Source: an uncultured Hyphomonadaceae bacterium
GTDB lineage: Bacteria > Pseudomonadota > Alphaproteobacteria > Caulobacterales > Hyphomonadaceae
NCBI GenBank assembly: GCA_964467505.1
Contig: CAYXQV010000005.1
Coordinates: 1-27,457 of the forward strand
DNA: 27,457 nucleotides
Direction: 5' to 3'
The position numbers were made by a program, and so were the translations under genes. This document shows, in pieces, positions 18,995 through 27,457 of the stretch. The notes beneath the pieces are model-generated. The model was not told the DNA's origin. It did no database searches and saw nothing but the letters and a program-made list of their open reading frames with translations. Position 1 is the first letter of the stretch; every line of letters begins with the position of its first letter.

Positions 18995-19190
18995 CAGGCT
19001 GGCGAAAACCAGGTCAAGTTTTCATCACCTGTCTGAAGACAGTCCTTCCCATCCCGACCACCCCGGACCTGATCCGGGGTCTTTTACCTGCGGGCCGGAA
19101 ACAGGCAGATCCCGGGTCAAGCCCGGGACGGTCGGATGTCCGGGGTCGTTTCAGAAACAGTCCCTTTGGGTTTTTCAGAAAGCCTGCTGA
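18991..19190 (+). mobile_element. 200-bp non-autonomous MITE-like nested palindromic element, copy 1
   Basis: Terminal IRs TTAGCAGGCT / AGCCTGCTGA; core CCCCGGACCTGATCCGGGG...CCCGGGTCAAGCCCGGG; 139/160 ungapped identity with copy 2 (hand count, 19021-19180 vs 22968-23127). Confidence 0.75.
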
Positions 19191-22938: not shown

Positions 22939-23135
22939 GCCGTTGCTGAAAAACGCGTATTCAGGTTTTCCTCATCTGTTTCAAGACAGCCTCTCCCATC
23001 CCGACCGCCCCGGACCTGATCCGGGGTCTCTCGCGTCCGGGCCGGAAACAGGCAGATCCCGGGTCAGGCCCGGGACAGTCGGATGTCCGGAGGCGTTTCA
23101 GAAACAGTCCTTTTGCGTTTCTCAGCAGCCTCTCA
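22936..23135 (+). mobile_element. 200-bp MITE-like nested palindromic element, copy 2
   Basis: Terminal IRs TGAGCCGTTGCTGAAAAAC / GTTTCTCAGCAGCCTCTCA (15/19 complementary); same core as copy 1. Confidence 0.75.
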
Positions 23136-23378
23136 AGCCGCCGCTTCGTTGAAATTCGGGCGGTAGGACTTGCGTTTGCCGTCGCCCTCGCCACTCTTGC
23201 GCCGGCACGGCATGCCATTGACCATGTTGGAGCGAACGTCGGTCCGCGCACTTCTCATGGCTGCAACAAATCCCGAATCCACCAGGTCGACATCAACTTC
23301 ATAGCCGCGTTCGGCCCAATATTCGCGAATTTTGTCTTTCAGGCGACGAGCGCCGTCAGCGTCACACCAGTCTCTCAT
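23133..23378 (-). CDS. Small (81 aa) hypothetical protein
   Basis: MRDWCDADGARRLKDKIREYWAERGYEVDVDLVDSGFVAAMRSARTDVRSNMVNGMP...; GGAGAGAG RBS upstream of ATG 23378. Confidence 0.7.
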   Translation of the reverse strand: MRDWCDADGARRLKDKIREYWAERGYEVDVDLVDSGFVAAMRSARTDVRSNMVNGMPCRRKSGEGDGKRKSYRPNFNEAAA

Positions 23379-23860
23379 ATACTCTCTCCAGGCTCTATCA
23401 GTGCTGTAGATAACAAGGGCCACGACTGACCCCTGCGGCCTGTCCTTCTCATAAGGCAACGCGGGTTCTACCCGTCTGTTGGCTAACGAGATGACGCCAA
23501 TTGCATCCGAAAGCAAGCAGCGGCGGAGATGACTTTTTTGCAAAGGTTTATGAATGAACGGATATTCAGCATGAACGGGAGTACAGCATGTGCTGAAATA
23601 TCAGTTCAACTGTACGGAAAGGATTGATTAACGGAATATAAGCGTAAACCTACCCAATTGTTGCCACAAAGCGCCGTATAGCGCCCTCCGGCGAGTGATC
23701 GCACACATTTATTAATGCATAATTTCATATCTGCCATGTTAATATGCATATTCCTGAGAGCTTTTCTGCGGTCAGGAGAACATCCGGCAAGCTGCCTGCC
23801 GATTGGCTTGCGTCCGCGATGTGGCTGCGCCTGAGTCGCAGTCCTCGGCCAGCAACAGCC

Positions 23861-23889
23861 TTGACGAGCGGTAAGCTGGCGCATAACCA
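23861..23889 (+). promoter_or_regulatory. Sigma70-type promoter for tRNA-Val
   Basis: TTGACG-N17-TAACCA ending 18 nt before the mature tRNA. Confidence 0.65.
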
Positions 23890-23907
23890 CCAAGGCCCGG
23901 CTTGACG

Positions 23908-23982
23908 GGGCGATTAGCTCAGCGGGAGAGCACTGCCTTCACACGGCAGGGGTCACTGGTTCGATCCCAGTATCGCCCACCA
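23908..23982 (+). tRNA. tRNA-Val(CAC)
   Basis: Acceptor GGGCGAT/ATCGCCC + A-CCA, D arm AGCTCAG..GGGAGAGC, anticodon stem CTGCC/GGCAG with loop TTCACAC, T loop GGTTCGATCC. Confidence 0.96.
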
Positions 23983-24082
23983 TACCGACTTGGTTGGTAG
24001 CCTGGTTGTTGCGCAACACCGCAACGATCAGGCAAGACCCGCCATATTGTGCATGTGCCCGGTCGCGCGTTAGCATGGCGCG

Positions 24083-25501
24083 ATGCCCGATGATGCCAGC
24101 CCTGCCCCATCGAATACACTGATGCGCAAGCTGCCGCAATTGCAGTCGCTGCTGGAGACGCCTGCGCTTGCCCGCGTGATTGCGGGCAATGGCCAGGCCG
24201 CCGTGACGCATGCCGCGCGCGCCGTGCTCGATGCGCTTCGCCAGGACCTGCTGGCTGGACGCACGCAAACCCTGCCAGACTTTTCGGGTGAGGAATTTGC
24301 CGCGCAGGTCGAGGCCCGGATCGCGCGCGAGGGCCAGTCCAGCCTGAAACCCCTGATCAATGCGACCGGGGTCATCATCCATACCAATCTCGGCCGCGCG
24401 CCGCTCGCCCCGCAAGCGCTCGAGGCGATGCGCCGGATCGCCGAGGGCTATTCCAATCTCGAACTGGACCTGGAAACCGGCCGGCGTGGCTCGCGCCATG
24501 AGCATGTTGCCGGGCTTGTCCGTGAGCTGACGGGCGCGGGCGATGCACTCATCGTCAACAATTGCGCTTCGGCCGTGCTGGTCAGCCTCGCCGCGCTCGC
24601 CATGGGGCGCGGTGTCATTGTCTCACGCGGGGAGCTTGTGGAGATCGGCGGTGCGTTCCGGCTGCCCGACATCATTGCCGCAAGCGGCGCGCACCTGGCG
24701 GAAGTGGGCACCACCAACCGCACGCACCTGTCGGACTATGAAAAGGCCATTACCGATGACACCGCGCTCTTTCTGAAAAGCCATACGAGCAATTATCGCA
24801 TTGTCGGGTTTACCGCTGCGCCGGAACGCGCACAATTGTGCGCTCTGGCGGCCCGCCATTCCATCCCCGTCATGGAGGACCTCGGCAGCGGCGTGCTGGT
24901 CGATCTGTCGCCTTTCGGGCTGGTCGACGAGCCAAGCGTCGCAGACGTGCTCGCCTCGCGCACAGACCTCGTCACCTTTTCCGGCGACAAGCTGCTTGGC
25001 GGCCCGCAATGCGGCATCATTGCCGGGCGCGCCGACCTGATTGCGCAGATCAGGTCTCACCCAATGATGCGCGCGGTACGGATCGACAAGCTTTGCCTCG
25101 CGGCGCTGGAGGCGACGCTGCAGCTCTACAGGCCACCCTTCGACCCGCTGCGCGATATCCCGGTCCTTGCGCGTCTGGCCACAGATCCCCGCAAGCTGCA
25201 GGCGCGCGCAGCACTGCTGGCCGACTGGCTCCGCGCCGATGGCGTGGCGGGTGTCAGCGTCTCGGCAACGCCGGCTCAGGCTGGCGGCGGGAGCCTGCCC
25301 GGCCAGGACCTGGAGAGTTTTGCCGTGACCCTTGATGCTCGGCCGCTTTCTGTCGACACGCTGAGCGCGCGGCTGCGCCAGGCTGACCCGCCGGTGATCG
25401 GCCGCGTGCGCCATGACCGGCTCCATCTCGACATGCGAACTTTGGCTGAGAGCGATCTGCCTGCCATTCGTGCAAGTATCGCATGGGCGCTCAAGCCATG
25501 A
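24083..25501 (+). CDS. selA: L-seryl-tRNA(Sec) selenium transferase (selenocysteine synthase)
   Basis: [82 protein letters not shown] (PLP Lys), RAVRIDK. Confidence 0.96.
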
Positions 25502-27384
25502 AGTCGCTGGCGCTGGCTGTTATCGGCCATGTCGACCATGGCAAGACATCGCTGGTGCGCGCGCTGACAGGAATGGACACTGACCGCCTGCCCGAGGAGA
25601 AAGCGCGCGGATTGTCCATCCTGCCCGGCTTTGCCTATCGTGACTTTCCTTCCGGAACCGTCGATTTTATCGACACGCCCGGCCATGAGGACTTTATCGC
25701 CGCCATGGTGTCCGGCACGGCGGGTGCGCGCGCTTTCCTGCTGGTGGTCTCGGCGGTGGAGGGCATTGCCCGCCAGAGCGCCGAGCATCTGGAAATCGCC
25801 GCCAGTCTCGCCATTGGCCAGGGCCTTGTCGCCATCAGCCAGTGCGACCGGCCAGATGCTCGCGCGCTCGGTGAACTGACAGGCGAGGTGGAGGCACTGC
25901 TGCGAGCACATGGCGCTGACGGCACGGAAATCGTGGCGTGTTCGGCAGGCGCCGATCCGTCAACCGGCGCCCTGGAAGCCGCGATTGACCGGCTGATCAC
26001 CGCCTCCCCGCCAGCTGCCAGCCTGCCAGCCTCCTTCCTGCCCATCGACCGTGTGTTCAGCATTGACGGGCACGGCCTCGTCGTCACCGGCACGCTTTGC
26101 GGTTCGCCGCTGCATGTTGGCGCGCAAGCAGAATTGCGCCCCTCGGGACACAGCGCCGTGATCCGGGCCCTGCAGTCACGCGGCGAGGCGTGCGCGAGCG
26201 CAGAGCCGGGCACACGCGTTGCGGTCAACCTTCGCGGTGTCTCTCGAAGCGAGGTGGCGCGCGGGGGCGTTCTTGTCACTCCGGGATGTTTTCCCGCCTC
26301 ACACCAGATCGACCTGCATGTCAGCATGGCTGCAAGCGCGCGCGCGGGCCTTGGGCACATGGACATGGTGCGCGCACTGTTTGGGGCATGCGCGCTGACG
26401 GCATCGGCGCGCCCGCTCGAGACCGAATGGATCGCCCCGGGCAAGAGCGGGCTTGTGCAATTGCGGTTCGAGCGCGAGGTGACGGCCTTTGCCGGCCAGA
26501 GATGCCTGCTTCGCCAGCTTTCACCGCCGGCCACGCTCGGCGGCGGCGTGATCCTCGACCCGTGCGCACGCGCCTTCCGGAGACGCGGCCGCGCAGTGAC
26601 CCGCGCCCTGCATGGCGCACGCCTCGGCGACGTCTCAGCGATTGCCCGGGCCCTTGCCGAGGGTTCGCGCGGCGCTGGCGCCATTGATGATATTGCCCGC
26701 CTTGCCCGCACTCATCCCGCGCAGATAGAGCAGGCGCTCCCTGCTGGTTTCATTGCCCTTGGTGGGGGATACATCGCGCCGGGCGACGCCATCGACGCGC
26801 TCGAGCCTGAGTTCATCGACGCTGTCGAGACCGCGCATTCCACAGCTCCAGCCCGTCCTGGCGCGTTGGCAGGTGAACTGCGCAACGGTCTGCAGCGCAA
26901 CTGGTCGCCCGCTCTCGTCGCCTTCGCCCAGCAAAGACTGGTCGGCCAGGGCAGGCTGGTCGCGCGCGGCGGTTTCCTCGCAGACCCGGCACATGACCCG
27001 GAAGCTGCATTGTCGCCGCGCGACAAGGCGCGTCTTGTGGAACTGGAACACACGCTGCGCGAAGGCGGCGCCTGCCCGCCCGAACCGGGGCAACCAGGCG
27101 CGGAAGGCAGCGAACCGCTGCTCGACCTGCTGGTCGCTGCGGGCCGCGCTGTCAGGCTGTACAATACGTCCCTGAAGCGCTCGATCGTCTTTCATGCAGA
27201 CGCGATCGAAGCGGCACGCGCACGGCTCGCGGAGAAGTTTCCGCAGGGCCATTGCTTCACCACAGGCGAGGCGCGTGAAGCCCTGTCGACGACGCGAAAA
27301 TATATCGTGCCGCTGCTGGAACATCTCGACACGCTGGGACACACGGTCCGTGAAGGTGACGCGCGCCGCCTGAATGCGGTTTGA
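25498..27384 (+). CDS. selB: Selenocysteine-specific translation elongation factor
   Basis: [59 protein letters not shown]-terminal winged helix [13 protein letters not shown]; ATGA overlap with selA. Confidence 0.95.
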
Positions 27385-27408
27385 CGCGTTGGTGTGCGCG
27401 GTTAAGCT
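27381..27408 (+). promoter_or_regulatory. Possible sigma70-type promoter for selC, overlapping the selB stop
   Basis: TTGACG-N16-TAAGCT, 12 nt upstream of the tRNA-Sec 5' end. Confidence 0.5.
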
Positions 27409-27420
27409 TGATTGCAGGCT

Positions 27421-27457
27421 GGAGGTGACTGGAGTCTGGTGGCTTCCCTGGTCTTCA
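27421..27457 (+). tRNA. selC: tRNA-Sec (UCA), 5' part, truncated by the window end
   Basis: GGAGGTGA (8-nt acceptor strand) - CT - GGAGTC TGGT GGCTTC (6-bp D stem with 4-nt loop) - C - CTGGT - CT TCA (UCA anticodon). Same layout as bacterial tRNA-Sec, directly after selAB. Confidence 0.9.

Follow-up and report, generated by a model that had tools for sequence, protein, structure and literature searches.

The stretch analyzed here, 27,457 nucleotides (nt) long and referred to as the window, is the whole of contig C5 (CAYXQV010000005.1) in a metagenome-assembled genome (MAG) of an uncultured Hyphomonadaceae bacterium (GCA_964467505.1, here G000; comparison genomes are G004, G009, and so on, and loci L006 and so on). 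Its right-hand end carries, behind a tRNA-Val(CAC) gene, genes for selenocysteine (Sec) decoding: selA, selB, and the first part of selC. Together with two further genes on a second contig, C21, these form a five-gene selenium cassette. The features at the end of the window are:

23908..23982, + strand: tRNA-Val(CAC), found by ARAGORN and Rfam; the conserved left anchor of the insertion
23983..24082, + strand: spacer of 100 nt from tRNA-Val to selA, containing the left junction of the insertion
24083..25501, + strand: selA, L-seryl-tRNA(Sec) selenium transferase, 472 amino acids (aa), Pfam SelA and TIGR00474
25498..27384, + strand: selB, Sec-specific elongation factor, recognized by its Pfam domains; ATGA overlap with the selA stop codon
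27421..27457, + strand: 5' half of selC (tRNA-Sec), 37 bases, with the TCA anticodon as the last three bases of the window

The selA gene starts exactly 100 nt past the end of tRNA-Val, and its product is strongly supported by both profile collections (Pfam SelA, 4e-141; NCBIfam TIGR00474, 575.9 bits against a cut-off of 267.9). Two in-frame ATG codons, at 25483 and 25498, are available to selB; the second, which makes ATGA with the selA stop, is favored because the alignments of relatives begin at residue 6. SelB lies above the Pfam cut-offs for GTP_EFTU, Beta-barrel_SelB, SelB-wing_2, and SelB-wing_3. The original prediction, made from the letters of the window, had placed selA 100 nt behind tRNA-Val(CAC), coupled selB to it by ATGA, and put a UCA-anticodon tRNA with a 6-bp D stem after selB; the first is borne out by ARAGORN, Rfam, Pfam, and NCBIfam, the second by the ATG at 25498, and the third by the complete gene as scored on C21. 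Its statement that selD, formate dehydrogenase, and integrase are missing upstream in the window agrees with profile searches, in which no selD, molybdopterin/formate dehydrogenase, or tyrosine integrase (PF00589) match fell on C5.

The assembly is fragmented (490 contigs, 2.93 Mb, 62% G+C [GC], 90% complete, 2% contamination). The last 55 bases of C5 (27403-27457) are the exact reverse complement of the end of C21 (L006 18298-18352) and are found in no third contig of the assembly; the assembler may have broken the sequence inside selC because of strain heterogeneity for the cassette or a drop in coverage. The join is independently validated by gene order in G004 and G009, which equals that on C21 (see below). 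On C21 the remaining features of the cassette are:

L006 18334-18240, - strand: complete selC, called tRNA-SeC by ARAGORN and matching Rfam RF01852
L006 18150-16561, - strand: X529, an open reading frame (ORF) of 529 aa, the next gene after selC
L006 16526-16005, - strand: UGSC gene, 173 codons with one in-frame TGA at 16250-16248, matching PF24696 and NF041046

The complete tRNA-Sec scores 76.7 bits against RF01852 (cut-off 47) over its full length (1-91) and has a 6-bp D stem. Across the join the cassette reads selA-selB-selC-X529-UGSC, all co-directional, with gaps of 36, 89, and 34 nt in addition to the ATGA overlap; between the start of selA and the stop of UGSC it measures about 5.67 kb. 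The original prediction had described a cluster with no client gene in view, to be sought, like the rest of selC, downstream. The contig end inside selC had hidden the client: the remainder of selC was recovered through the 55-bp overlap, and the UGSC gene lies two genes past the break, split at its UGA by ORF callers as had been anticipated. Its membership in a catalogued family (PF24696, NF041046) goes against the further suggestion that the clients could include new families.

With TGA read as U, the roughly 19-kDa UGSC product matches PF24696 over positions 1-170 of 172 (1.8e-47, 162.1 bits; cut-off 25) and the NCBIfam model NF041046, "UGSC family (seleno)protein" (165.4 bits; cut-off 125). 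The UGA is codon 93 and falls at the U of U-G-S-C (context ALAD-U-GSC-TTCS), opposite the position at which aligned fusion proteins of the Cys type have the first Cys of their CGSC. A PDB sequence search with UGSC returned nothing. Passages of the literature describe UGSC as a catalogued selenoprotein family, abundant in aquatic metagenomes and thought to be thioredoxin (Trx)-like (PMC2398784, PMC13188914), and list it with its abundance while ascribing no function to it (PMC2398784, PMC5029168, PMC13188914). The passages searched hold no description of a fixed linkage of UGSC to selABC or to a Trx-fused partner.

The UGA is followed by a strongly constrained element. In a set of 75 different UGA-anchored sequences, third-position entropy is zero at the five codons from +15 to +27 (ACG UGC AGU NUG CAC), against 1.0-1.8 bits at flanking residues that are equally invariant. 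They belong to a hairpin, CGUGCA-GUN-UGCACG, with a 6-bp stem from +16 to +33 that starts 13 nt past the UGA and carries G-U in its loop; the G000 sequence matches this invariant consensus exactly. A post-UGA hairpin with a G-U loop fits the bacterial selenocysteine insertion sequence (SECIS) of the fdhF paradigm. The evidence for this SECIS is synonymous-site constraint; there is no covariation, as no base varies.

The position of the cassette is best understood by comparison within the genus, where the order glmU-like gene, HAD gene, orf136, tRNA-Val(CAC) is common to all 18 other species genomes. In G004 and G009, the two whose flank most resembles that of G000 (69-80% identity at the protein level), only 75 and 56 nt, respectively, separate tRNA-Val from the 3' end of dinB, which is followed by a GGDEF response regulator, metW, metX, hisC, and tyrA; the same dinB-GGDEF-metW-metX-hisC-tyrA order is found on C21 downstream of UGSC. 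In G000, 5,842 nt separate tRNA-Val from the dinB stop, and the only genes in between are selA, selB, selC, X529, and UGSC. Because the site is empty in G004 and G009 within the same flanking order, the five-gene block is an insertion of about 5.8 kb. We hold with considerable confidence that it is a compact selenium cassette, with UGSC as client and X529 beside it, inserted between tRNA-Val(CAC) and the 3' end of dinB.

The ends of the insertion are less sharply defined. No alignment is possible between the 100-nt spacer at 23983..24082 and the 56-75-nt tRNA-Val-to-dinB spacers of G004 and G009, and the junctions, set against the empty sites, gave no usable boundary, the spacers being too diverged. 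Tyrosine integrase (PF00589) finds no match on C21, as on C5, and a search for a right attachment repeat (attR), using tRNA-Val segments of 14-25 nt with 0-4 mismatches, found no match in the 7.2 kb downstream. In other congeners tRNA-Val is followed by secF/secD, by MerR-fabH-plsX, or by an RTX gene, all chromosomal and without an integrase; such varied chromosomal neighbors indicate a synteny breakpoint at this site and not a classical attachment (att) site. The idea that the window shows the left edge of an acquired selenium island is thus supported by the empty site in the closest congeners, G004 and G009, while the integrase and attR repeat proposed as checks were not found, and the island amounts to one small five-gene cassette. 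It is a tRNA-adjacent element present here and absent from the corresponding site in close relatives, lacking the integrase and attR of a tRNA-targeted island. Nor is selABC syntenic at tRNA-Val across the genus, the arrangement that would have made the locus an ordinary one for its family.

X529 belongs to a large family (more than 7,800 homologs in a database at 90% identity) whose members are named as TlpA, peroxiredoxin, or redoxin family proteins. In its model (predicted local distance difference test [pLDDT] score of 95), residues 1-136 adopt a thioredoxin fold of the ResA/TlpA/DsbE/CcmG type with a C-E-T-C motif (against 3gl3: VIA Z 18.0, root-mean-square deviation [rmsd] 1.8 A over 133 residues; Foldseek E 8e-10 to ResA). 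Relatives among ResA, TlpA, CcmG, and DsbE fall in a VIA range of Z 15-18, with an rmsd of about 2 A over ~130 residues. This N-terminal domain scores 13.0 bits against Pfam Redoxin, below the cut-off of 26.6, and a homolog that is 54% identical to X529 (P0122) passes AhpC-TSA (28.5 against 26 bits). Neither a signal peptide nor a membrane anchor is visible in X529, so the protein is probably cytoplasmic, and in this and in its fusion to a domain of about 370 residues it differs from ResA, TlpA, CcmG, and DsbE. A fold search with full-length X529 gave only Trx-fold matches, within residues 1-136, and a PDB sequence search with X529 gave nothing.

The large C-terminal domain (residues ~170-529) defines a family that comprises 5,459 representatives when clustered at 50% identity, with a nearly invariant Cys (C249, motif AINAVMAGC). 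Folded alone, it is modeled at pLDDT 91, and its own unnamed family is all that it matches among AlphaFold DB clusters. The best Foldseek match reaches E 6e-3 at TM 0.25 (class-I fumarate hydratase) and the best VIA match Z 5.6, with 94 residues aligned. The weak rows for fumarase, PrpD/IRG1, and cyanuric acid hydrolase lie below chance level and were rejected as signs of kinship. The domain occurs alone, fused to Trx, and fused to UGSC in both orders: in P0213 and P0254 the partner domain comes after a full-length UGSC of the Cys type, and in P0212, P0215, and P0230 it comes first, the UGSC part behind it stopping near profile position 75-92, where the UGA falls. The domain is probably the one in the "UGSC/Unknown_1" fusion mentioned in passages of PMC2398784. 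Five proteins of about 710-740 aa (P0146, P0166, P0173, P0188, and P0261) contain two matched stretches of the C-terminal domain, without Pfam annotation, and are apparently tandem duplications of it.

A scan of species genomes returned 458 stretches that encode a relative of X529. Among the best 80 of the 458, X529 is followed directly by a *GSC gene at 80/80 loci, and selA, selB, and selC lie upstream at 62; the remaining loci, where selA-selB-selC is not visible, are mostly on contigs too short to tell. Such constant linkage and the fusions suggest that X529 and UGSC most likely act as one enzyme.

Selenophosphate synthetase is encoded outside the cassette. A gene on contig C13 (L007 5188-7255) specifies an Ndh-SelD fusion, a type of protein already known according to passages of PMC2398784, with a C-A-G-C-G-A-K active site (CxxC); its N-terminal piece holds the C-A-G-C site, and the part of selD after a gap of 100 Ns scores 129.4 bits against TIGR00476 (cut-off 125). 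The original prediction had looked for selD as part of the island; it stands instead on this other contig, directly beside selU, the gene for tRNA 2-selenouridine synthase (C13:15358-16266, 341.7 bits). The selD-selU pair is common to the congeners G009, G012, and G016, which are sel-negative (no selA), and the selU carriers of the genus (G000, G004, G009, G012, and G016) are exactly the genomes with an Ndh-SelD unlinked to a cassette; G014, G019, and G021 are without selU and have selD adjacent to the sel genes. As the unlinked Ndh-SelD tracks selU in this way, the selD-less cassette of G000 appears to use, in this subclade, the resident SelD of the selenouridine (selD-selU) trait, which is inherited vertically.

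Searches for other selenoproteins in G000 gave no further client. A genome-wide scan for in-frame UGA codons in Cys-adjacent motifs was calibrated to recover the UGSC control, in which the SECIS lowers the codon scores just after the UGA; its ten best candidates all proved to be adjacent genes in the same frame. Read-through searches by family found one molybdopterin enzyme (PF00384) with no internal stop and no Sec-type molybdoenzyme, matches without stops for PF00578 (AhpC-TSA), PF02627 (CMD), and PF00085 (thioredoxin), and no match for PF10262 (Rdx). The UGA/Cys-pair search proposed earlier as a way to further clients thus yields none beyond UGSC, and no second selenoprotein was seen in these five families or in the scan.

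The Sec trait is as patchy in this lineage as had been expected. Scores for selA exceed the cut-off in 4 of 18 congeners (G004, G014, and contig-end fragments in G005 and G018), in 2 of 6 further genera within the family, and in 0 of 16 genomes representing the remaining families of its order. A UGSC gene with one internal TGA is found in exactly these four congeners and in G021, a Henriciella MAG. The five-gene block recurs in G004, G014, and G021, away from tRNA-Val and dinB and with flanks that mostly have no counterpart in G000; in G004 the cassette is on contig C2 and the tRNA-Val site, on C5, is empty. More widely, the cassette is borne chiefly by Sulfitobacter and other roseobacters, by Hyphomonadaceae, and by Phenylobacterium/Caulobacteraceae, the last with a divergent selA. 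Its cultured carriers include Sulfitobacter brevis DSM 11443 (L078) and S. undariae DSM 102234 (L077).

Two further observations concern the distribution of these genes. Cassettes in MAGs labeled Chitinophagaceae and Acidobacteria (L079, L106, and L126) have short branches to those of Hyphomonadaceae (L072/L083 and L117), and could represent very recent cross-phylum transfer or mis-binned contigs. At L019, in a genome from another genus of the family (G019), selA-selB-selC stands with an adjacent Ndh-selD, and that genome has no X529 or UGSC; its Sec machinery serves a client other than UGSC.

Most likely G000 gained its cassette independently of its congeners, through a process that left behind neither an integrase nor an att repeat. 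Proteins of the flanking housekeeping genes are 75/69/77% identical between G000 and G004 and 61/58/68% between G004 and G014, whereas SelA, SelB, and X529 are 57/40/72% identical in the first pair and 71/61/83% in the second; separate acquisition is favored because the cassette identities reverse the housekeeping pattern and because the sites differ. Alternatively, an ancestral cassette may have descended vertically and either moved to the tRNA-Val/dinB site in G000 or been lost from it in G004 and G009, the low SelA and SelB identities then reflecting fast evolution in G000. We regard this as unlikely, given a site that is empty in both closest relatives, three cassette proteins that are all closer between G004 and G014 than between G000 and G004, the absence of the cassette from 13-14 of 18 congeners, and at least three changes required on the starred branches of the cassette tree to account for the cassettes of Hyphomonadaceae. 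Several results nevertheless weigh against our interpretation, and some of them suit vertical descent. A quick SelB tree had joined G000 to two Caulobacteraceae MAGs (95 by the Shimodaira-Hasegawa-like approximate likelihood ratio test), and the foreign origin read from it was dropped after an approximately unbiased (AU) test, which did not reject a clade of G000 and congener SelB (p 0.715), the constrained tree being 7.8 log-likelihood units better. In a concatenated tree of SelA, SelB, and X529 (26 rows), G000 stands on a long branch within the 99/97 clade that also holds the congeners' cassettes, as sister to a group of the G004/G014 clade with Hyphomonas and roseobacter cassettes; the support of 93/93 is not decisive for so long a branch. 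No integrase, transposase, or direct repeat accounts for the insertion, and the composition of the cassette is barely deviant and near native (65.5% GC against 62.4 +/- 2.2%, the 96th percentile; tetranucleotide distance at the 81st percentile), too weak to serve as evidence of foreign origin. Of the comparison of SelA/SelB trees with the species tree that had been proposed, the SelB tree alone proved uninformative; it is the incongruent identities and the empty site that favor acquisition.

The remaining counterpoints concern function and completeness. SelB scores 240.8 bits against the NCBIfam equivalog TIGR00475, 1.4 below the cut-off of 242.25, and the 100-N gap that interrupts selD makes its intactness uncertain; both these points, and the long branch of the G000 cassette proteins, would suit a decaying relic in which the genes are present and the UGA is no longer decoded as Sec. 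All five cassette genes are intact and full length relative to their models, however, the SECIS hairpin is that of the consensus, and selD and selU are both present, so that a relic, which the original prediction had named as the outcome if selD and selenoproteins were absent, seems very improbable. Still less probable is an assembly or binning artefact that joined sel genes of another organism to this genome by mistake: the MAG is fragmented and slightly contaminated, the contig break falls inside selC, and some cassette loci in public MAGs bear implausible taxon labels, yet both junctions lie within contigs (C5 holds tRNA-Val and host genes with selA and selB, and C21 holds selC-X529-UGSC with dinB and the genes beyond), and both host flanks are syntenic with congeners. 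As the assembly is fragmented and reaches 90% completeness, further clients or another selD may have escaped notice. Of the partner protein, the C-terminal domain has no convincing solved relative and its fold is uncatalogued; the putative X529-UGSC complex and redox relay are proposed from linkage, fusions, and motifs.

The window has other features near its end. A strongly self-complementary dispersed repeat of about 189 bp, situated apart from the cassette boundary, similar to a miniature inverted-repeat transposable element and with a minimum free energy of about -94 kcal/mol, occurs at 22943-23131 and 19014-19178; there are at least 30 copies in G000 (77-93% identity), it is also present in the congeners G001 and G016, and G004 lacks it at the corresponding position. 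The HAD gene and tRNA-Val are separated by an ORF of 136 aa (23133-23543, - strand) without a Pfam match, which is probably a real small gene, given protein identities of 64-80% in all congeners examined. The stretch 23400-23900 has a low GC content of 48-54%.

The system resembles that of E. coli in its SelA, its winged-helix SelB, its UCA tRNA-Sec with a 6-bp D stem, its SelD-type synthetase, and a hairpin with a G-U loop after the UGA. It differs in that selA, selB, and selC form one run with the client gene, in that this client is not a formate dehydrogenase, and in that the selD of G000 is an Ndh fusion with a Cys active site. With UGSC proteins as described in passages of PMC2398784, PMC5029168, and PMC13188914, the client shares a full-length match, U at the motif, and a family typical of aquatic bacteria. 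Its SelD likewise shares with the Ndh-SelD fusions in passages of PMC2398784 an N-terminal part resembling pyridine-nucleotide-disulfide oxidoreductases, a SelD part, and a CxxC site, and is distinguished by standing next to selU and away from the cassette. [quoted passage not shown] There, as here, the machinery moves as a unit with a selenoprotein gene, and close relatives differ in whether they have the trait; the block of G000 is much smaller, has UGSC as its client, and is without selD, so that a resident SelD would be needed.

By homology to E. coli, SelA would convert Ser-tRNA(Sec) to Sec-tRNA(Sec) with selenophosphate supplied by the resident Ndh-SelD fusion, and SelB would bring the product to UGA codon 93 of UGSC, directed by the 6-bp SECIS hairpin 13 nt past the UGA. 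The resulting protein is predicted to carry a U-G-S-C (UxxC) redox motif and to team with X529 as a single enzyme. The probable chemistry of the pair, judging from linkage, fusions, and motifs, is a thiol/selenol relay that may run from the CxxC of X529 to the UxxC of UGSC and on to a substrate held by the large X529 domain with its nearly invariant Cys. Glycine and proline reductases provide a parallel: GrdB and PrdB are UxxC selenoproteins that work with a partner subunit and a thioredoxin-type reductant. They serve here as an analogy for a working model of UGSC and X529 only, no relation of sequence or fold having been found.

In most respects this is an ordinary case, with a client family that is already known and an arrangement that recurs in hundreds of genomes. 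Its hidden half has practical consequences, because ordinary ORF calling splits the UGSC gene at the UGA and the contig break inside selC would make the Sec trait of this MAG look client-less. More tentatively, and with somewhat less than even confidence, we suggest that the block is a self-contained, horizontally exchanged "one-enzyme" cassette with all the decoding machinery for one client, in which selD is present or not according to whether the recipient already possesses a SelD of the selenouridine trait, and that the UGSC-X529 pair is a new cytoplasmic selenium-dependent reductase built from the Trx-fold CxxC domain, the ~370-residue domain that has no solved relative, and the UxxC protein UGSC; if so, the catalytic domain of X529 would represent a fold and family not yet described.

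The locus offers a clean natural example of a whole Sec trait kept and moved for a single selenoprotein, and the empty site in the closest relatives makes the insertion well defined. There is also some hint of cassettes without selD establishing themselves where the host already produces selenophosphate for selenouridine. For about 20 years UGSC has ranked among the most abundant selenoproteins of aquatic environments; a constant partner such as X529, with its uncatalogued domain, is an obvious handle on the function of the family, and the 5.7-kb all-in-one cassette would be a convenient unit for heterologous expression.

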